Part shown: in pieces, positions 1 to 8,254 of the stretch | Numbering within the stretch: position 1 is the stretch's first letter | Layout of the letters: each line of letters starts with the position of its first letter | From: a virus | Lineage: Duplodnaviria > Heunggongvirae > Uroviricota > Caudoviricetes | Direction: 5' to 3' (one strand) | Length of the DNA: 8,254 bases | Virus record (IMG/VR): IMGVR_UViG_2565956626_000015 | The notes under the pieces: model-generated | Told to the model about the DNA's origin: nothing | The model's database searches: none | The model's input: only the letters and a program-made list of their open reading frames with translations | Made by a program: the position numbers and the translations under genes

Positions 1-34
1 GTTCAGTTGGTTCAGTTGGTTCAATTTGTAAAGA
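1..34. repeat. Left terminal inverted repeat, perfect 34-bp partner of 8221-8254
   Basis: Bases 1-34 (GTTCAGTTGGTTCAGTTGGTTCAATTTGTAAAGA) are the exact reverse complement of 8221-8254, compared by hand. They contain two contiguous GTTGGTTCA units (6-14, 15-23) preceded by a partial unit GTTCA. Confidence 0.9.
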
Positions 35-66
35 TCGTTGTTTTTATTGTGTTTTTTCTGAAATAT

Positions 67-117
67 TGAACCAACATCAACTCATTTTGAACCAACACAG
101 CCCAGCTCTGAACCAAC
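67..117 (+). repeat. Iteron array: three direct TGAACCAAC copies at 67-75, 88-96, 109-117
   Basis: Three exact 9-mers start exactly 21 bp apart (two helical turns), in opposite orientation to the two terminal copies at 6-23. This is typical of arrays of protein-binding sites. Confidence 0.8.
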
Positions 118-164
118 AACACAGCGATAGCTTTGTGATTGGCCCGTTATTTTCTGGCTGATAT

Positions 165-203
165 TTGAGCGTATAACAGTGTTATACAGTGGTATACTGT
201 ATG
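165..203 (+). promoter_or_regulatory. Putative promoter/operator upstream of the Mnt-like gene: three tandem 10-bp repeats
   Basis: 171-180 GTATAACAGT, 181-190 GTTATACAGT, 191-200 GGTATACTGT give ACAGT/ACTGT pentamers at 176, 186, 196. TATAACAGTGTTATA is a dyad, and -10-like hexamers TATAAC (173-178) and TATACT (193-198) lie within it. The -35 element could not be placed confidently. Confidence 0.4.
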
Positions 204-219
204 GATATTACTCACTGAT

Positions 220-663
220 ATGGTCTTTGCAATGAGCAAATCTAATCTGGTCGCGTTCCGCATCCCATCTGAATTGCAGGATGAGTTTAATCGGTCTGTT
301 CTCGCTTCTGGAGGGGATAAAACCTCCTGGCTTGTTGATGCGATTCGCATGAAGCTGGGACAGCCGGAAAAGTCTATTGATTCACGAATGCTTGGGCTGG
401 TGGAGCGCATGGAAAAAGCCGCTGCGTCGCTTATTGCCGGAAAGCCGAACATCCCACCAAAGCCATATAACGAAACGGCAGTTATAAAGATCATTGCCGA
501 TACCATCCGACAGGGGTTTGATAATGGGCGTGTGATAGCGGAACGGCTCAATGAAGCAGGCTATCAAACAAAAGCTGGTAAAGCATGGGATAAAGACATT
601 TACAGCGCGTGGAAGCGTCAGGGAAGCAATGCTGAAAAGTTATCAGTGGCTCTAAGAATGTAG
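220..663 (+). CDS. DNA-binding protein with N-terminal Arc/Mnt-type RHH domain and C-terminal serine-recombinase-type DNA-binding motif (147 aa; alternative start ATG 232)
   Basis: N-terminus (LVAFRIPSELQDEF...GGDKTSWLVDAIRMKL) fits the RHH pattern beta-strand/helix/G-x-S-T/helix seen in P22 Arc and Mnt (FNFRMPMEV...GRSMNSELL). C-terminus (VIAERLNEAGYQTKAGKAWDKDIYSAWKRQG) resembles the conserved motif of the recombinase domain of large serine recombinases. No clear Shine-Dalgarno, so the start is uncertain. Confidence 0.65.
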   Translation: MVFAMSKSNLVAFRIPSELQDEFNRSVLASGGDKTSWLVDAIRMKLGQPEKSIDSRMLGLVERMEKAAASLIAGKPNIPPKPYNETAVIKIIADTIRQGFDNGRVIAERLNEAGYQTKAGKAWDKDIYSAWKRQGSNAEKLSVALRM

Positions 664-679
664 CCCTATATTTTGATTT

Positions 680-1057
680 TTAGACGTGCTTGGAGAACAG
701 GTAGCGTGCCATCACTAAAACAATGCCAAAGACTTCAGCGAGGGTTCCCCCCATAAATAGGTTTATAACGAAATCACTAAAATGGAGCAGTTTTGCTCCA
801 ATAAGGACAAAAATCCCATTCATAACTAATAGCTGGCCTATCAGAATGCCGATAAACCACCGAGCAAACATTTTTTTCAGTTTTGTGTCTGTTTTTAAAT
901 CTTTTGTTTTTGCACGCTGATGGGCTTTGGCTGGATCCTCATCATTTAGATGTGTGAGGGTTTTTGCTGATGGTGATGAGCCAGAGGCTGGTTCACCTCT
1001 GGCTTGTCTTGCCGCTTGCTTTAGTTTTTCAGATATAGCGTAAGATCTAGACGTCAT
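680..1057 (-). CDS. Small membrane protein, 125 aa: charged Lys/Pro/Ala-rich cytoplasmic N-terminal tail plus two predicted TM helices
   Basis: Hydrophobic segments WFIGILIGQLLVMNGIFVLIGA and INLFMGGTLAEVFGIVLVMARYLF follow a roughly 60-aa hydrophilic N-terminus. Its ATG lies 3 nt after the stop of the upstream peptidase gene (TGA-GTA-ATG), indicating translational coupling. Confidence 0.7.
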   Translation of the reverse strand: MTSRSYAISEKLKQAARQARGEPASGSSPSAKTLTHLNDEDPAKAHQRAKTKDLKTDTKLKKMFARWFIGILIGQLLVMNGIFVLIGAKLLHFSDFVINLFMGGTLAEVFGIVLVMARYLFSKHV

Positions 1058-1060
1058 TAC

Positions 1061-1549
1061 TCATCGAAGCCCTAAATTCTTTAGGCGATAACGTATAGCA
1101 TCATCGGATACACCAAAATAGGAAGCCATCATTACTGGTGCATATCCTGCATTGTTGAGGCGTCGAACCTCTTTTTCTGGCATGAGAAGACATGCTGCAA
1201 AGTTATTGGCGAATATTTCTTCGCTGTCTACACCTTGGCTTGCCAGTTTTCCGCGGTAATCAACAAACTCATATTCAAGTGGCTGACCGTTCTCAGTTCG
1301 TTTGACGTAATGCCCTAACTCATGCGCACACGTAAATCGTTTGCGCACGTTACTATCATTACGATTGAGTATGATTACTGGATCTTGTTCTGGCTCTTTC
1401 AGCAATGCGCCTGAAACATCATCATCAAGCGTGGTTTCAACAACATCCAACCCTAACTCATTGGCAATCCATACTGGATCAACCGGGAATTTCCTATCGC
1501 CCCAGATATCTTTCAAGAGGGCATGTGCAGATGTATTCGACATGTTCAC
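1061..1549 (-). CDS. ImmA/IrrE-family zinc metallopeptidase (Peptidase_M78/DUF955-like), 162 aa, standalone without HTH domain
   Basis: HExxH motif in CAHELGHYV with downstream FANNFAACLLMPEKEV, characteristic of ImmA/IrrE peptidases. Strong Shine-Dalgarno (AAGGAGGTGA) sits 5 nt upstream of the ATG at 1549. Confidence 0.85.
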   Translation of the reverse strand: MNMSNTSAHALLKDIWGDRKFPVDPVWIANELGLDVVETTLDDDVSGALLKEPEQDPVIILNRNDSNVRKRFTCAHELGHYVKRTENGQPLEYEFVDYRGKLASQGVDSEEIFANNFAACLLMPEKEVRRLNNAGYAPVMMASYFGVSDDAIRYRLKNLGLR

Positions 1550-1630
1550 CTCCTTTGATTATGGTTAAATAGTCGAAATTTTCACCACTTCCCTTGTGGA
1601 TATATTTACATATAAAAGGTAACTAGTCAC

Positions 1631-1642
1631 TAACCAACACAA
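1631..1642 (+). promoter_or_regulatory. Internal iteron-like site TAACCAACACAA in the peptidase operon upstream region
   Basis: AACCAACACAA (11 nt) exactly matches the terminal iteron copy read as the reverse complement of 8144-8154. It lies in the intergenic region between the peptidase start (1549) and the divergent mini-ORF (1725). Confidence 0.3.
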
Positions 1643-1724
1643 ATCTTTTTGAAGACAGATGGGGGGTGTTGAACGGTTTTTAAATGATTTCTTTGATTTT
1701 TAACAGCAATAAGGAGCATTTTTA

Positions 1725-1778
1725 ATGAAATTAGACGTTGATAATAACTTTTTGAGCAATCTTTACATATCATGGTAG
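1725..1778 (+). CDS. Mini-ORF, 17 aa (MKLDVDNNFLSNLYISW), with strong RBS; possible leader peptide or relic N-terminus
   Basis: AAGGAG at 1711-1716 lies 8 nt upstream of the ATG at 1725. It is divergent from the peptidase operon, and no long ORF follows. Confidence 0.2.
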   Translation: MKLDVDNNFLSNLYISW

Positions 1779-2000
1779 CCTTCTATGCTGTTTTTCCAAC
1801 TAAAAGATTGGCACATTTATCCGCTGGTAGTGGCGTTTTTTCGCCGCCAGCGCCTCTCTGGTTCCATTCCTTACATCTGTTCAAATTCAGCAACCCTTGC
1901 CGCGATCTTGCCGTTATCGAGAAGCTCTTTCGCTTTTCGGTTAATACTATCGGTCTTCATATTGCCAGCAGCATACGCCATCCGATAATTTCGATGCTAC

Positions 2001-2380
2001 GCGCGCGTACTTGTCGCAAAATATCAGGCAAAGGCCAGATTCAGAAAGTCGTGATAACCACCAGCACAACATGAGAGGTCATGTAACGCGATTTATCACA
2101 CCAGATACATGTGATTGGTGTACCCGCATAAAACATCGTCATAGCGCGTCCTGTGCGCATATACGCCGATAATCAACACATCACCACCACTCTGTCTTAT
2201 GTAGAGAACAGTTTTATGGTGCTCCCCGCCATCGTGTGCGTACTGGTCGGACGCAGTTCAAAAAATTTTGCAACTGATACCCCTCGCGCGCGTACTGGTC
2301 ACGAAATTGGTGTTTTGCTGTGGCAGTGATATCAGAAAAATCTTCCTGTTTCACATAAAGCGGATATGCGCGTACTGTAA
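2001..2380. repeat. Dispersed repeat family with core GCGCGTACTGG, four copies
   Basis: GCGCGCGTACTTGTC at 2001-2015, GTGCGTACTGGTC at 2236-2248, GCGCGCGTACTGGTC at 2286-2300 and GCGCGTACTG at 2368-2377, all in a stretch lacking a convincing ORF. Confidence 0.5.
2096..2310 (-). pseudogene. Possible frameshifted remnant of a RelE/ParE-family toxin gene
   Basis: Minus-strand translation gives ...TVLYIRQSGGDVLIIGVYAHRTRYDD..., resembling the conserved RelE/ParE C-terminus (Y-R-x-x-x-x-V-x-I-L-x-V-x-H-R-x-x-Y). The upstream part is in another frame with no intact start. Hand translation only. Confidence 0.2.
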
Positions 2381-2493
2381 CGGCCCCATCAACGGGGATC
2401 GGATTTGAAATCCTGACCCAAGCTATGTACCAAATGCCATGTCTTGGATATATGATGATTGCCATTCTAAACAAAGCTAAAGGGAGGGTTGGT

Positions 2494-2844
2494 GTGAATG
2501 CTCAGGCTGTCATCATGGTTTTCCTTGGTCTGATTGTCGCAAAACTATATCCAGACTGGTGGAAAGGGGCATTAGCAACTGTCGCCATCTATTTGCTTTT
2601 ATCCGTCGTTAAGCGATCGTTCGTTAAGACCGTAAATCAAGCAAAACGTTTCTCATTTAAGAATTTAATAAACTATATTACTGGGCTTATTTTTTGCCTT
2701 TCAATTTTGATCGCTTCAGCTTTTTTGCCCGTATCAATAGCTAATTTTTTTGGCGCACCATATGAGGTAGGTTATCTATTCTCTGTTTTTTGTCTTGTTC
2801 TTTCCCTTCTTTACCTATGGATGAGAGCAAAGAACAAAAATTAG
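2494..2844 (+). CDS. Small polytopic membrane protein, about 4 TM helices (116 aa from GTG 2494; 139 aa if ATG 2425)
   Basis: Strong Shine-Dalgarno (AAAGGGAGGG, 2478-2487) precedes the in-frame GTG at 2494, whereas the ATG at 2425 has none. Four hydrophobic segments are present. It is convergent with the 701-aa gene, in the position P22-like phages use for superinfection-exclusion morons. Confidence 0.6.
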   Translation: MNAQAVIMVFLGLIVAKLYPDWWKGALATVAIYLLLSVVKRSFVKTVNQAKRFSFKNLINYITGLIFCLSILIASAFLPVSIANFFGAPYEVGYLFSVFCLVLSLLYLWMRAKNKN

Positions 2845-2858
2845 CCATCCGTGGCTAA
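2829..2858 (-). terminator. Putative intrinsic terminator after the 701-aa gene (minus strand), in the convergent gap
   Basis: Inverted repeat TTAGCCA-tccg-TGGCTAA (2841-2858) is followed on the minus strand by TTTTTGTTCTTT. The stem is short and GC-poor, so strength is doubtful. Confidence 0.3.
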
Positions 2859-2862
2859 CCAG

Positions 2863-4968
2863 TTATTGAGCTTCTTTTTGTGATGCCTGTGCGACTCTGG
2901 TGAGCGATTGTGTGACCGTACTGATCGCTCTGTCATATGCTGTGCTACCTTTTGGTGTATTTGCCAGACGTAACAAGGCATTTCGTATAACAGGGCTTTC
3001 GTATGCCTTCGCTGCTCCGCCTACGGCACCAGCAGCAGGAACAACAAACGCAGCTGTTTTTAGCATCCCCGCTAATACTGCTGCGTTTATGATGCCACCA
3101 CCAACTAACAATCCATAAAGCTGCTGACCATTTAAGTTTTGAACGTTCGCTTTTGCCGCGTGTCTTGTATCGTTGAGGTATTTAATAACGCCGTCCAGTT
3201 CCTTTCCATGTACGCCTTTAAAGAAAGTTGCTGATTGCTTCCTGTTCCGGTGTAACGCATTAATAAACTTCTCAACACTGATATTTCCAGACGGATCAGT
3301 CGCCTTATCTACAGCATTCTGAACTATGGCTGCTCGTGCGTTTTGCCTACCATTGTCATCCAGAAGCCTGTAAAGCTGAGAACGTTCTGATGGGCTTTGG
3401 CTAAAAACGAGTTTTGTTACATCCTCAGGCGTGGCCTTGCCGCTGGCTATTGCCTTTTGAACGCGCGTTCTTCCCATCATGTCATTGAATTTAGACCATG
3501 AGCGATCAACCCTTGCCATATTAATGGCTTCGTCTGCTCCAAGATTTTTGGCTACGGCTTTTTTCATATCCGCCGTATATGCCTTGTAGATAATATCGCT
3601 GGCTTTCTGGAGCGTATCTTTATCAACAGTGTCAGATGACGCCATAAATCGCTTTCGAAGATCGGTTCTGTTTTCCCTCGCCAGACGCAGGTCATTTGGT
3701 CCGCTGGTGATATCGTCTTTAAATTGCTGCAAGACTTTTACCGCGGCTCTATCCTGAGATTTGCCCGGGCGGCTTAACACGGCAATCTGATTGTCGATAG
3801 CTTTTACCGTGTTTGAGAGATCGACAGGGGTATCCCCCATAGCGTCAATTATGCGGTTATATCGCTTTCCTGCTGCCTCAATGAATTTTTGTTGCCCTTT
3901 AGTCGCAGATTCATAAAGCTGTTTATCAGAAATGCCACCCAGACCATCGCTAAATGTTCTGACTAAATTTTCTCGTGCTTGTTGTTGATTCAGCCGATTC
4001 TTACCGGTTCCAAAAAAAGGAACTCTTTCGCCTAATGTCTGAGCCTGACTCTGCATAAAGGTTTTATCTTTCAGCATGTCACTGGTCATTAACGGCAGAT
4101 TTCTTTCCGATGCAAAGTCGACAGCAGCCTTTGCTTCAGGCGACATATCACCACGAACAGCCCTCGAAACCGCACTCGCTGTATTTTCCAGCCCCTTACC
4201 AATACCACCAATGCCAGCAGAAATTACCGTTTGTAACGGATCAATATCTTCTCCACCAGCAAGGCTGGTGGCTCCCTGTAGTGCTAAATCTGTAGCTGCT
4301 GATTTTCCTATGGCACCAAGCACCGTTCCAGCCCTGCCCGCTGGTGTAAACGCCAACGCATTAGCAAGAAACGAAGTCAGGTCTTGCGGTGATAAACCCG
4401 GTTTGTTTAGGGCATAATCACCTGATGGCAGAGAAACGATAGTATTCCCCTTCTCATCCTGCCTTAATGTCGCCCCCATTCCCTGGAGAATCTTTTCCTG
4501 AGACGCGTCAGAGCCGAAAAGTTGAGACCATCCAGCCTTTAGGGCATCCATGCTTAGTGAGTTCAATTCTGGGGCAGAGGCGACATTTTGCAGTCTCTCC
4601 ATCTCTGGAGTCATTCGGCTTTCGCCTGTTATAGCATCCCGCATCGCAGCCCCAAGACTGGCTCCCTGTTCTGCTGAACGCTCAAGCCCCTCTCTTTGCT
4701 GAGTAGCTAACTTTGCATACCCTGACGCAAGAGAATTATCAGATGATGTATGTTGAATATTTTGAGTTGCTGATTGGGATCGGTCTATTTCATTCGTTGA
4801 TGGTAGTGGATAGGCAGCATAAAAAGCCTGCTTAGCCTGCTCTACACTTTCTCCGGCTTGCGGGGCCACGACTTCATTGAAGTATTGCTCCTGAGCCTGC
4901 GCTTTTTGTTCTGGTGCTAACGCCTGATACTGTGGAGAGGCGATAACATCTTTCCATGCTTTAGCCAT
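2863..4968 (-). CDS. Phage internal/ejection protein-like, 701 aa (P22 gp16-like by position and composition)
   Basis: Last gene of a four-gene coupled operon. Gln/Ala-rich with a Gly/Ala-rich hydrophobic C-terminal segment (LVGGGIINAAVLAGMLKTAAFVVPAAGAVGGAAKA). Its start overlaps the upstream stop (TAATG). Confidence 0.5.
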   Translation of the reverse strand: MAKAWKDVIASPQYQALAPEQKAQAQEQYFNEVVAPQAGESVEQAKQAFYAAYPLPSTNEIDRSQSATQNIQHTSSDNSLASGYAKLATQQREGLERSAEQGASLGAAMRDAITGESRMTPEMERLQNVASAPELNSLSMDALKAGWSQLFGSDASQEKILQGMGATLRQDEKGNTIVSLPSGDYALNKPGLSPQDLTSFLANALAFTPAGRAGTVLGAIGKSAATDLALQGATSLAGGEDIDPLQTVISAGIGGIGKGLENTASAVSRAVRGDMSPEAKAAVDFASERNLPLMTSDMLKDKTFMQSQAQTLGERVPFFGTGKNRLNQQQARENLVRTFSDGLGGISDKQLYESATKGQQKFIEAAGKRYNRIIDAMGDTPVDLSNTVKAIDNQIAVLSRPGKSQDRAAVKVLQQFKDDITSGPNDLRLARENRTDLRKRFMASSDTVDKDTLQKASDIIYKAYTADMKKAVAKNLGADEAINMARVDRSWSKFNDMMGRTRVQKAIASGKATPEDVTKLVFSQSPSERSQLYRLLDDNGRQNARAAIVQNAVDKATDPSGNISVEKFINALHRNRKQSATFFKGVHGKELDGVIKYLNDTRHAAKANVQNLNGQQLYGLLVGGGIINAAVLAGMLKTAAFVVPAAGAVGGAAKAYESPVIRNALLRLANTPKGSTAYDRAISTVTQSLTRVAQASQKEAQ

Positions 4969-6389
4969 TAATCACCCCATAGTGAAGAAAAGTTACTGCT
5001 GGCTGCTGGCTGTGATACCTGCTCAGATTGCGGCAATGTCTGCGACGAAGAAGAAGTTCCTCTGTCAACTGCTGAAATAACCCGCAAAGCATCATAAGCT
5101 CGACCAGAAGCAGCTTTCAGCGAATTGAACTGGTTTTCCATCTTCCGGCGCTTGGTATCAATGGTTTTTGTGGAGTCGCCAGGCTGAGGGAAATACATTT
5201 GATAATATTTTGACATTTCAGCAGGTACGATAGCTGCCCCTGTTTCCTGACGGAGTATTGCCATTATTGCGTCATTAGCATTAACAACGTATTGCTGCTC
5301 TGTTGGGCTGAGCGTTAAGTTAGCCAGCGTCCCATTACCCAAAGCATTATTAATGACCGCCACTCGCTGTGGGCTAAGCTGGTCTTTCAGTGTATCTATT
5401 GAATCAAGAGCATCCCTAACCCTGTATGCAAATCCAGCAGCTTTTTTAGCCCCTTCTGGCGACTTTTCCATGATCTTTTGGGCTGTTGGCAAAGCTATTG
5501 GACGAAATCCATCTCCAGATATTGGCTGGTTTAGTTTTCCCTGCTCTTCACTTCCGTCTGTGTAGTATTTTGTGACAGTGCCATCATCGTTTTCTCTAAC
5601 ACTCATTAATTTTTTGGCGTTTGTATTAATTCCAGCCGCTGCCGCAAATGCCGCCGCCCCCTCTGGATCCGCCTTTAACATTTGAGCGTACTGATTGTAA
5701 TTCTGCATTGCTGCTGTTGGTGCATATGCTGACGTTAACGCATTTGCTCGGCTAATATCCTGCCCTCTCGCCTGAAGTGCTTCGCCAGCCTGATTGCTGC
5801 GGATTGTCTCTGCCAACTTGCCACGCTCAATATCCCGACCTTCCATTTGATCTTTGATATCGAAATACTTCTCATGACCGAGAGAAAACAGTGCCATACT
5901 ACCAGCAAGCCGCTGGAACCACTGTGGATCATTAACATGCATTTCGGCAACAGACTCAGGAGAAATTCCCAAGCGACGCATTTCATCTTCGTTATCTGCT
6001 ATGAATTTTCCAAATGCCCCAGTTCCGAGCGAAGATGCGATTTGAGCACTAGTCGCAAGATGACCAATAGAATTTCTCTGGTCGTCATCAATAAAGCCCA
6101 TCCCTTTCTGAACGCTTTCAAATTCTTCTGGATACTCAGAAATAAGACTGCGCATTTTGTTTCTGTCTCCAGACTCAAAAGCCCCGGCATATGCTTTCTG
6201 AAACTCTGCTTTACGCTGTTGTTGACGTGCCTGCTGATTAATCTCAGCAACGCCTCTTAGCCCCTGTAGCGCCATTAAACCTACGTTTGGCTGCTGCTGA
6301 TACTGCACAGGCTGAGGAACGGAAGAACGAGGAGCATTATCATTTTGCGGTGCCATGCTAGGCAGCCCGCCAAGTTGCCATGTCGCCAT
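4968..6389 (-). CDS. Phage internal/ejection protein-like, 473 aa (P22 gp20-like by size and position)
   Basis: Overlaps both neighbours by TAATG start/stop. Gln-rich and largely helical in composition. Size is close to P22 gp20 as I recall it (about 471 aa). Confidence 0.5.
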   Translation of the reverse strand: MATWQLGGLPSMAPQNDNAPRSSVPQPVQYQQQPNVGLMALQGLRGVAEINQQARQQQRKAEFQKAYAGAFESGDRNKMRSLISEYPEEFESVQKGMGFIDDDQRNSIGHLATSAQIASSLGTGAFGKFIADNEDEMRRLGISPESVAEMHVNDPQWFQRLAGSMALFSLGHEKYFDIKDQMEGRDIERGKLAETIRSNQAGEALQARGQDISRANALTSAYAPTAAMQNYNQYAQMLKADPEGAAAFAAAAGINTNAKKLMSVRENDDGTVTKYYTDGSEEQGKLNQPISGDGFRPIALPTAQKIMEKSPEGAKKAAGFAYRVRDALDSIDTLKDQLSPQRVAVINNALGNGTLANLTLSPTEQQYVVNANDAIMAILRQETGAAIVPAEMSKYYQMYFPQPGDSTKTIDTKRRKMENQFNSLKAASGRAYDALRVISAVDRGTSSSSQTLPQSEQVSQPAASSNFSSLWGD

Positions 6390-7066
6390 TAGAATCCAAG
6401 CCCCCCAACAAGACCAATAAGCCCACCACCAATAGCGCCGGCCGCAGTACCTATTCCAGGAACAACGGAACCAAGTTGCGCACCCGCTAAAGCGCCTGAT
6501 GCTGCCCCACCAATACCACGCGCAAGACTGGATGGCTGCTGCGCCTGACCTGCACGAATAGCGCCAAGCCCCTGCAAGAGTTGCCCGGTATTATTGGCGT
6601 AGTTTTGCCCTGCTGTTGCCTGCCCTGATGCCGCATTCATCCCGACATTTAGCAGGTTTCCATAATTTTGCATTTGCCCACTAAGCCAATTGTTATAAAG
6701 CATGGGCGCAATGGAAGATAACTGGTTACTGGTAGCTGTTGAGCCAAGCCCCCCGGTAGCTTCTGCTGAGACAAGGTTCTGATAACGGGCCTGATCTGCC
6801 TGTGTTTTATATAAACCAGAACCAAAGAAATCATTCGCGGCTTTATTCTGCCCTTCCAGAGTCATCAGTCCTTGTAGTTGTTGTAAAGCAGGCAATCCGA
6901 CTTCTGCATACGGCTTGAGATTATTCATCACCGTATTCCACTGCTCGCGCTGCAAATCAATTGCCTGCTGCTGGGCCTTCGCCTGAGCTTTAGAGGCACC
7001 ACCATCACCGCCTTTTTCGTATACGGCACGATTGAGATGTTTATGAGCTATATGGGTAATTAACAT
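6389..7066 (-). CDS. Phage internal/ejection protein-like, 225 aa (P22 gp7-like by size and position), with Gly-zipper C-terminus
   Basis: C-terminus GGAASGALAGAQLGSVVPGIGTAAGAIGGGLIGLVGGLGF is a glycine-zipper-like membrane-active segment. Its start overlaps the stop of the upstream gene (ATGTTAA). Confidence 0.5.
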   Translation of the reverse strand: MLITHIAHKHLNRAVYEKGGDGGASKAQAKAQQQAIDLQREQWNTVMNNLKPYAEVGLPALQQLQGLMTLEGQNKAANDFFGSGLYKTQADQARYQNLVSAEATGGLGSTATSNQLSSIAPMLYNNWLSGQMQNYGNLLNVGMNAASGQATAGQNYANNTGQLLQGLGAIRAGQAQQPSSLARGIGGAASGALAGAQLGSVVPGIGTAAGAIGGGLIGLVGGLGF

Positions 7067-7521
7067 TCGCTGAGTTCCTTATATTGTTGCCGAGTTAACT
7101 GATAAAGCGTTACGCCAACTGGCTTACCACATCTGATATATGCATCGGCCAGGTGACCAACACGGGTAGCGCCAAGCAAACGGATAATTGCCCGTCCGTA
7201 TTTGGTGGTGTCAGGAACCATGGTAATGCTGTTAAGGAATGGTGAGTTTTCGAGAAGCCATTTGCAGAATAATCGATGCCCTTGCAGTGCATATTCACCA
7301 CGGAATCCGGGGTCGTACACCGCATGGCATTCAACAACGCTATGCCAGAAGTTACGCACTTCATGAACGCCAGCCAGCACTAATCCTTCGTAGATGCCGA
7401 GATATACCGCATCAGGCTTGATGTAGTACGTGTGCCCCGGCTCAACAATATTTTCGGTATTGCCTGGCTCGTTAAGAAAGGCCTGTAATCGCACAGGGTT
7501 ATCAATAAATTTTAGTTCCAT
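7060..7521 (-). CDS. Hypothetical protein, 153 aa; positional equivalent of P22 gene 14, or alternatively an SOS-controlled antirepressor-like protein
   Basis: ORF is translationally coupled to the downstream 225-aa gene and starts 16 bp after the Arc-like ORF. No recognisable catalytic motif. Confidence 0.6.
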   Translation of the reverse strand: MELKFIDNPVRLQAFLNEPGNTENIVEPGHTYYIKPDAVYLGIYEGLVLAGVHEVRNFWHSVVECHAVYDPGFRGEYALQGHRLFCKWLLENSPFLNSITMVPDTTKYGRAIIRLLGATRVGHLADAYIRCGKPVGVTLYQLTRQQYKELSEC

Positions 7522-7537
7522 GCGATGCCATCCATTT

Positions 7538-7699
7538 TCACATACAGCCTGCCAGCGCCTTATCTATTAACCCTCGTGCAATTTCATGCAGAGTTGGCGC
7601 TACTCCAATTCCTGATTTTTTACGCTGCTCTTCCTGAATTTTCTTTATCGCTTCCATTTGCTTCTCACTTATCAATACCGGCTTTACTGAAATAGCCAT
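7538..7699 (-). CDS. Small Arc/CopG-type RHH DNA-binding protein, 53 aa (MAISVKPVLISEKQMEAIKKIQEEQRKKSGIGVAPTLHEIARGLIDKALAGCM)
   Basis: Not in the supplied ORF track (below its length cutoff); found by hand translation of the minus strand. Shine-Dalgarno AAGGGGG lies 4 nt before the ATG. The beta-strand/helix/G-x-x/helix layout is typical of RHH repressors. Confidence 0.55.
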   Translation of the reverse strand: MAISVKPVLISEKQMEAIKKIQEEQRKKSGIGVAPTLHEIARGLIDKALAGCM

Positions 7700-7712
7700 A
7701 ACGCCCCCTTAG

Positions 7713-7738
7713 AACTGTATAAAACAACAGTTATTATA
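7713..7738 (-). promoter_or_regulatory. LexA (SOS) box-like site CTGT-N8-ACAG abutting a perfect -10 TATAAT, upstream of the Arc-like ORF
   Basis: AACTGTATAAAACAACAGTT (7713-7732) matches the CTGT-N8-ACAG core of the E. coli LexA box consensus TACTGTATATATATACAGTA. The minus-strand TATAAT (complement of 7733-7738) is adjacent, so the box would cover the transcription start. Confidence 0.5.
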
Positions 7739-7790
7739 GTTTCACAAATCGCAATATTCATCATCGTAATTGCAAAATATGAAACAAATA

Positions 7791-7827
7791 GCACAAAAAA
7801 ATGCCACCGCTCAGTAGCTGGTGGCAT
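7791..7827 (-). terminator. Intrinsic terminator (minus strand) upstream of the Arc-like promoter
   Basis: Stem ATGCCACCGCT (7801-7811) pairs with AGC(t)GGTGGCAT (7816-7827) around loop CAGT with one bulge. On the minus strand it is followed by TTTTTTGTGC (complement of 7791-7800). Confidence 0.6.
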
Positions 7828-8020
7828 CGTTCTGTGTGTCAGGTTTTGACAGGTTTTTTATGGACTCTAAAAACTATATTTATGGTGTCGCATTACTCTT
7901 CACGGCAGGCGCTTTTCAGTTCTGCCCTTGCTTCTGGCTCCATTGGTAATTTGATTCGCGATCAGCTATGCGGATGGTTTGCTGAACAGGCATAACAACT
8001 TCTCAGAGGCTGTTTTCTGA

Positions 8021-8039
8021 ACTACGAAAATTTCGTAGT
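8021..8039. promoter_or_regulatory. Perfect 19-bp palindrome ACTACGAAA-A-TTTCGTAGT, operator-like
   Basis: Two 9-bp arms are exact reverse complements. It shares TACGAAA/TTTCGTA half-sites with the second palindrome at 8077-8097. Confidence 0.45.
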
Positions 8040-8076
8040 GCTCACTTTCAAAAACGTCACGCCCTTGTACACAGGA

Positions 8077-8097
8077 TTTTACGAAAGTCTCGTAAAA
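8077..8097. promoter_or_regulatory. Inverted repeat TTTTACGA-aagtc-TCGTAAAA, operator-like
   Basis: Two 8-bp arms are exact reverse complements around a 5-bp spacer, with the same TACGAAA half-site family as 8021-8039. Confidence 0.4.
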
Positions 8098-8147
8098 CAC
8101 TCTCTGATGCCAGCCAGGTGTTGTGCGCATCAATTCAGTCACATTGT

Positions 8148-8188
8148 GTTGGTTCAAAATACCGTGTTGTTGGTTCAGTGTTGGTTCA
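8148..8188 (-). repeat. Iteron array, right end: GTTGGTTCA at 8148-8156, 8169-8177, 8180-8188
   Basis: Three exact copies of the reverse-complement iteron. Copy 8180-8188 mirrors left copy 67-75 exactly; the other two are shifted by about one helical turn relative to the left arm. Confidence 0.8.
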
Positions 8189-8220
8189 ATAAAAAGAATA
8201 AAATCCTTATAAAACAATAC

Positions 8221-8254
8221 TCTTTACAAATTGAACCAACTGAACCAACTGAAC
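8221..8254. repeat. Right terminal inverted repeat, perfect 34-bp partner of 1-34
   Basis: 8221-8254 (TCTTTACAAATTGAACCAACTGAACCAACTGAAC) is the reverse complement of 1-34, with two contiguous TGAACCAAC units (8232-8240, 8241-8249) plus a partial TGAAC. Confidence 0.9.

Follow-up and report, generated by a model that had tools for sequence, protein, structure and literature searches.

Mirrored iteron arms around phage-satellite cargo in Escherichia coli as the probable halves of a split PICI-type replication origin

The Caudoviricetes record IMGVR_UViG_2565956626_000015 from IMG/VR is a DNA stretch of 8,254 nucleotides, here referred to in its entirety as the window, which begins and ends in an inverted repeat and carries copies of the 9-bp iteron TGAACCAAC close to both termini. 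The two iteron-bearing ends are termed the left (distal) and the right (proximal) arm. Sequence comparison with closed genomes and related islands indicates that the arms are probably two mirror-image units of a replication origin of the type found in Gram-negative phage-inducible chromosomal islands (PICIs), which are phage satellites, and that the window is the cargo between them.

As the original prediction stated, positions 1-34 are the exact reverse complement of positions 8221-8254 and each window arm carries five iterons; the match fails at base 35. The ten exact copies compare with 0.06 expected by chance, and with one mismatch allowed 13 matches were found in the window against 1.9 in shuffled sequences (at least 13 matches in 0 of 200 shuffles). 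When mismatches were tolerated, a repeat search of the window stretched the inverted pair to 44 nt at 93% identity. The arms are composed of the following features:

1-23, minus strand: outer tandem iterons of the left arm, with TGAACCAAC at 15-23 and 6-14 and, at 1-5, the final 5 nt of a third copy, which is whole at 19997-20005 of the E. coli locus L001 (see below)
24-66, no strand: spacer of the left arm, 43 bp, AT-rich, a candidate melting region; the perfect repeat stops inside it at base 34
within 24-66, no strand: conserved TTTGTAAAG adjoining the tandem iterons, as seen in the distal-arm alignment
67-117, plus strand: three inner iterons of the left arm, TGAACCAAC at 67-75, 88-96 and 109-117, spaced at 21 bp
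8148-8188, minus strand: three inner iterons of the right arm, TGAACCAAC at 8148-8156, 8169-8177 and 8180-8188, spaced at 21 and 11 bp
8189-8231, no strand: spacer of the right arm, 43 bp, AT-rich (81% AT in L001), a candidate melting site
8232-8254, plus strand: outer tandem iterons of the right arm, TGAACCAAC at 8232-8240 and 8241-8249, followed by 5 nt that begin a third copy

The phasing originally described for the left inner copies thus holds (21 and 21 bp), and it is amended for the right inner copies (21 and 11 bp), so that the symmetry of the arms is not strict. In closed genomes another 11 bp of the repeat lie outside each window end, giving 45 bp of perfect repeat: on the left, ...AAAAGGTGTTG leads into GTTCAG, and on the right, CTGAAC leads into CAACACCTTTT. 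Each arm therein contains a third tandem iteron that is bisected by the window end, bringing the total to 6 + 6 = 12 copies, with none elsewhere in 48 kb. Both arms consequently present three plus three opposed iterons around a 43-bp spacer of 75-84% AT.

The whole window is covered (100%) at 99.8% identity in E. coli chromosomes, and 80% or more of it is present in 65 closed genomes, colinear with the sequence on either side. In E. coli B4103-1 (locus L001; loci are cited by number where several have to be told apart) the window corresponds to positions 20001-28255, inside an island of ~15.8 kb between dinD and yicC, a site that is empty in most E. coli genomes. The island gene order is tyrosine integrase, a 321-aa protein, an AlpA-family regulator (PF05930 Phage_AlpA, E 2e-8), a 143-aa protein (named 'PM1773 family' by NCBI in related islands), AntA/AntB, DUF4222, an 805-aa Toprim_3 + DUF927 primase-helicase, the window, and a PerC-family gene; int, alpA, and pri-rep, the primase-helicase gene, are all on one strand. 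The integrase adjoins yicC at the island end, and a candidate 12-bp direct repeat is present at L001 19224 and 34844. The earlier statement that no transposase or integrase is encoded between the repeats is correct within the window, yet the tyrosine integrase lies ~5.3 kb past its right end in the same island. Judged by its genes, the island has the gene set of Gram-negative PICI phage satellites. Among the 5,426 complete E. coli genomes surveyed, the native left junction was found in 255 and the native right junction in 328; the split arrangement of the arms occurs in roughly 5-6% of complete E. coli genomes and in several genera.

The primase-helicase (Pri-Rep), encoded directly outside the right end, matches Toprim_3 and DUF927 of Pfam, and its helicase region matches an 8tch chain deposited as 'Pathogenicity island protein' (E 1e-11) as well as the SCCmec Cch family; by sequence, this chain and a helicase of the Cch family are its nearest relatives of solved structure. 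In L001, ~26 bp separate the pri-rep stop from the first iteron of the right arm, and the left arm is not next to rep. Read from the primase, the proximal arm runs from the stop codon through ~26 bp, three tandem GTTGGTTCA, and the 43-bp spacer of 81% AT to three opposed TGAACCAAC; the distal arm is the mirror image of this and is followed by perC. In the pathogenicity islands of Staphylococcus aureus (SaPIs), the origin comprises 6-12 iterons just downstream of rep with an AT-rich centre, the opposed iterons being bound by the C-terminal winged helix of Rep (PMC9371898), and the SaPI/PICI origin is defined by iterons directly 3' of rep or pri-rep, arranged as two opposed sets around an AT-rich region (PMC6092414, PMC9371898). 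The present arms resemble those of SaPI1, SaPIbov1, and the pri-rep-ori of EcCICFT073 in the iterons right after the rep/pri-rep stop, in the 6-12 opposed iterons around an AT-rich region, in the putative location of specificity in the initiator C-terminus (here suggested by co-variation), and in a helicase homologous to the 8tch chain. They differ in that the iterons are 9 bp long, those of SaPIs being penta- or hexanucleotides, and in that a double mirror-image unit of 12 iterons is present, its halves 8 kb apart and enclosing cargo.

A primase scan with one genome per species yielded 64 loci across Enterobacterales. In nearly all of them an iteron cluster begins 25-50 bp past the primase stop. 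The iteron word differs by lineage and tracks the last ~45 primase residues, with at least eight words each paired with a distinct C-terminal motif. For example, GAACCAAC pairs with RGYQRKSPRI(D/Q)GRQ and AGACAACA with RGYQGRVRE(D/G)GRQ, in primases whose backbones are ~83% identical, and TAACCCGT, GAACCGAC, TACCCGAC, GGTCGGTT, TAACCCAC, and TTATCCCA each have a C-terminal motif of their own. Of the evidence available, this co-variation argues most strongly for reading of the iterons by the primase, and the table of C-terminal motif versus iteron word would represent a natural specificity code.

The relatives also differ in how the two units are placed. Among the analysable loci of the 64, about 26 contain a single cluster of ~260 bp with 12 iterons in a fixed orientation pattern, which together represent eight iteron specificities. 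Eleven loci are split, with a six-iteron proximal arm and, further on, a distal arm of five to seven iterons. The gaps between the arms of these eleven loci, and of two E. coli loci that add to them, are as follows:

L047, 0.16 kb
L054, 0.4 kb
L060, 2.1 kb
L028, 4.6 kb
L016, 5.8 kb
L036, 6.1 kb
L067, 6.7 kb
L019, 7.1 kb
L066, 8.3 kb
L024, 8.6 kb
L034, 8.8 kb
E. coli L001, 8.0 kb
E. coli KP63 (L003), 9.4 kb

Once joined, the two window arms can be aligned over their full length with the contiguous origins of Erwinia L020, Pantoea L048, and L047, and the alignment takes in the outer 'AAGGTGTTGGTTCAGTTGGTTCAGTTGGTTCAATTTGTAAAGA' and its mirror. Alignments of 10 distal and 12 proximal arms have invariant iterons and spacing and diverged intervening bases, and CTTTACAAAT is nearly invariant in the 10 distal arms, which come from 7 genera. 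In Limnobaculum L054, a variant word, GGTCGGTT, is common to both split arms. In the split loci the distal spacers are AT-rich; among the contiguous loci they are AT-rich in some and GC-rich in many. In Yersinia pekkanenii L030, three iteron clusters (7512-7772, 12094-12354, and 13275-13565) are situated around an interrupted primase match; these may represent satellites in tandem or after rearrangement.

Exchange of the replication module was encountered in E. coli ETEC1721 (L002), where a DUF5906 primase stands in place of the primase module, homology to the window ends near base 8098, and iterons of the GGTACAGGT type also take the place of the right arm. Such islands, whose primase and proximal iterons belong to another family, still have an orphan distal arm with six TGAACCAAC iterons beside perC (L002 3009-3129; L104-L106, L110). 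The simplest account of these orphan arms would be that satellites at the same site have swapped replication modules, and the exchange would be recent, because the DUF5906-primase islands are ~99% identical to the window. The DUF5906-primase islands have iterons of their own (GGTACAGGT / GGTATAGGT), in two sets ~1.1 kb apart around two small genes (L002 11480-11595 and 12590-12710), and the split iteron layout is therefore not confined to the lineage with the DUF927 primase. In other islands at related sites, the annotation reads 'phage/plasmid primase, P4 family'.

Of the explanations offered by the original prediction, the iteron-based origin is thus the one supported, namely by the PICI/SaPI anatomy of the arms, by the arm abutting the pri-rep stop, and by the co-variation of iteron word and primase C-terminus. 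In the proposed mechanism, Pri-Rep would recognise the iterons through its C-terminal segment, assemble on both flanks of the AT-rich stretch, melt this stretch, and load itself there, as SaPI Rep does. The two units lie side by side in most relatives, as a putative ~260-bp origin of 12 iterons, and are separated by 0.16-9.4 kb here and in at least 11 other species-level loci. Pri-Rep would be expected to bind both arms, with the right arm as the firing origin and the left arm as a second origin or a cis-acting helper.

Several observations weigh against a split origin. In 15 related loci only one arm was seen inside the 10-kb flank covered, and the left arm persists without a cognate primase in the E. 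coli DUF5906 islands, which could mean that it is dispensable or has another, primase-independent role. The second unit of many contiguous origins has a GC-rich 34-bp spacer, and for this reason melting at the second unit is not plausible in every case. The left arm is also located in the divergent intergenic region between perC and the gene of a 147-aa protein, and a transcriptional role is possible.

PICI and SaPI origins are described as one compact block beside rep; the published descriptions that were found deal solely with the stretch 3' of pri-rep and say nothing of a distal unit. Here the block is a mirror structure of two units whose halves are conserved though up to ~9 kb apart. If both halves work, satellite origins would tolerate or exploit large central inserts, origin prediction restricted to the region 3' of rep would overlook one half of the DNA that acts in cis, and short-read assembly would systematically yield satellite contigs that are bounded by inverted terminal repeats ('ITR-bounded') and can be mistaken for complete small viral genomes.

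One alternative is that the left arm is a cis-acting partner and not a second origin, with Pri-Rep at both arms looping out the 8 kb; the left arm would then be needed for initiation at the right arm or would strongly stimulate it. It is compatible with a mirrored split origin, of which it is a refinement, and is regarded as a possible though not a likely account. Clusters of the same iteron are kept kilobases apart across genera, the L054 arms share a variant word, and two iteron sets also surround two small genes in the DUF5906-primase islands, all of which would suit a partner acting in cis. However, each arm alone has the full published origin anatomy, and islands with a single arm in reach exist. 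A precedent of this kind is phage satellite P4, where the ori/crr pair is reportedly bound by the alpha primase-helicase. The P4 alpha protein loops between ori and crr, and crr consists of direct 120-bp repeats. Like P4, the present element would be a satellite with a fused primase-helicase-initiator and two same-iteron clusters several kilobases apart, one of them beside the end of the initiator gene. Unlike P4, its initiator belongs to Toprim_3 + DUF927 and not to the P4 alpha family, and its arms are mirror images, each with an AT-rich centre, whereas P4 crr is made up of direct repeats. The island shares with plasmid R6K initiator-binding sites that are kilobases apart on one replicon, which is an analogy only. 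In R6K, pi-mediated looping from the gamma origin activates the distant alpha and beta origins, the iterons measure 22 bp, mirror symmetry is lacking, and the initiator is of a family unrelated to that of the island. P4 and PICIs are treated as separate lineages by Fillol-Salom 2018.

A stronger form, in which the distal arm is an obligatory Pri-Rep-bound partner that either loops out the cargo or fires convergent/divergent forks from two origins, is considered unlikely. If true, it would imply that the cargo, a P22-type ejection operon, is nested in a functional split origin and is selectively amplified or co-regulated with replication on induction, and that origin centres are a general cargo-insertion site in PICI satellites.

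It is improbable that the iterons are primarily transcriptional operators for the inward cargo operons and perC, with the 147-aa protein, the 53-aa protein of the window, PerC, or a Pri-Rep repressor as the regulator. Both arms are upstream of inward-reading genes, the left arm fills the perC / 147-aa-gene intergenic region, and it is kept in islands without the cognate primase, as such a role would allow. Nevertheless, the iteron word follows the primase C-terminus, kilobases separate the 147-aa gene from any iteron in islands with a contiguous origin, this gene has a separate upstream palindrome, promoter scans revealed no sigma-70-like promoter in either arm region, and ~450 bp and a terminator lie between the right arm and the 53-aa gene.

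The left arm might also be a non-functional duplicate, i.e., a relic of inverted duplication or recombination, with the right arm alone being of importance. Orphan left arms in the DUF5906-primase islands and the single-arm loci would fit such decay, but the distal arms of seven genera keep the iterons, the 21-bp spacing, and CTTTACAAAT while the flanking and inter-iteron bases diverge, as a relic would not be expected to do, and this explanation too is rated as improbable.

The original prediction further proposed a non-autonomous transposable or invertible segment with the repeat at its ends, in favour of which a perfect terminal inverted repeat does enclose variable cargo. This is very improbable, since the breakpoint of the cargo exchange in L002 falls within the right arm boundary, as expected of homologous recombination, and cargo-free origins of ~260 bp in other genera are bounded by the same repeat. 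For the inversion test, the predicted inverted junction was searched in all complete E. coli genomes with a coverage cut-off of at least 80%: it occurred in 0 of 5,426, against 255 with the native junction, and the best partial match (SFE8) is an ordinary island whose distal arm differs slightly. Wherever both marker genes were detected, the cargo has one fixed orientation, with the 53-aa gene after the proximal arm on the strand of the primase and the 147-aa gene reading inward from the far side. A check of the flanking sequence found no target-site duplication at the flanks of the repeat, and there is no transposase or invertase among the window and island genes.

Lastly, it is scarcely credible that the window forms a complete small replicon (a circle with a 68-bp palindrome, or a linear molecule with hairpin ends) or that the repeat is a fold-back artefact: the window does start and stop exactly in the repeat, but it contains no replication gene, and the repeat is present in hundreds of independent closed genomes. 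The window is colinear in closed chromosomes and the repeat runs 11 bp past its ends, which refutes the palindromic or hairpin-ended molecule, and chromosomal continuity on both sides leaves no free replicon. The suspicion of an assembly artefact accordingly fails for the repeat itself and probably applies to the window stopping exactly there. Both window ends fall at the identical point inside an iteron, a pattern expected of a graph assembler on a segment bounded by an inverted repeat, and because the repeat continues past both ends and each end cuts an iteron, the ends are most likely technical, the contig having broken at the repeat. In IMG/VR, 34 contigs contain a 29-mer taken from the repeat, and in assembly blocks with the 147-aa gene the longest contig is 5-10 kb in 570 versus 10-20 kb in 145.

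The cargo of the window consists of the following genes and features:

170-205, no strand: palindrome GTATAAC-AGT-GTTATAC and, after it, GGTATAC, just upstream of the 147-aa gene
220-663, plus strand: 147-aa protein, previously labelled ribbon-helix-helix (RHH); it reads inward from the distal arm in the split loci where it was detected (E. coli, L019, L024, L034, L060, L067)
680-1057, minus strand: 125-aa protein, phrog_5346, with a hydrophobic C-terminal half
1061-1549, minus strand: ImmA/IrrE M78 peptidase
2425-2844, plus strand: 139-aa hydrophobic protein without a family match
2863-4968, minus strand: gp16-type DNA transfer protein (PF26808 Phage_P22_gp16), cargo operon
4968-6389, minus strand: gp20 Inj_translocase, cargo operon
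6389-7066, minus strand: P22 gp7, cargo operon
7060-7521, minus strand: DUF2824/P22 gp14, cargo operon
7538-7699, minus strand: 53-aa protein, cargo operon
7804-7819, minus strand: intrinsic terminator-like hairpin with T-run, between the right arm and the cargo operon

The RHH label that had been given to the two small proteins was not confirmed, as there were no sequence matches in Pfam, NCBIfam, or PDB. For the 147-aa protein, likewise without a match in these three, the AlphaFold2 (AF2) single-sequence model had a pLDDT of 41.6 and was unusable. The palindrome at 170-205, which is outside the origin, is likely the autoregulatory operator of this protein; Serratia L060 has a related motif at the same position, and GTAAGAC direct repeats are found there in L019, L024, L034, and L067. 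The 147-aa protein is the wrong target for the electrophoretic mobility shift assay on iteron DNA that was originally suggested.

The ejection-protein operon of P22 type (2863-7699, minus strand) is apparently intact, and no capsid, portal, terminase, tail, or lysis genes accompany it. This suggests a P22-like helper, with the satellite supplying its own DNA-delivery proteins, as far as gene content can indicate. Variant ejection operons are present in other E. coli islands of the family, e.g., with an SLT-domain gp16 of 906 aa, and gp14 and gp7 also occur in Leclercia L039. Ejection-gene matches in O157 were considered as a relative of EcCICFT073/OI-51 and rejected, as they belong to a P22-like prophage remnant at argW/intS and not to a PICI. 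No paper describing satellite-encoded ejection proteins was found, in literature searches that yielded no usable text. Compared with the Gram-negative E. coli PICIs EcCICFT073 and EcCIO42 (Fillol-Salom et al. 2018), the island is alike in its int, alpA, pri-rep, ori, and perC variants, its size of ~15 kb, and its dedicated chromosomal site, and some Gram-negative PICIs are known to carry PerC variants (PMC6092414). It differs in its P22-type ejection genes, which are unmentioned in Fillol-Salom et al. 2018.

The remaining parts of the window are less regular. In ETEC1721, an Abi-family gene takes the place of the genes at 680-1549, which appears to be a variable accessory or defence slot. The ~450 bp between the right arm and the 53-aa gene (7700-8147) have no credible open reading frame, are conserved with either primase type up to ~8098, and may be a leader or a small RNA. 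Approximately 850 bp at ~1560-2420 have no convincing gene and contain repeated fragments (CGCGCGCGTACTGGTC..., families D6 and D8) that look like decayed copies of one gene; a related fragment is found outside the window at L001 19320-19400, left of perC.

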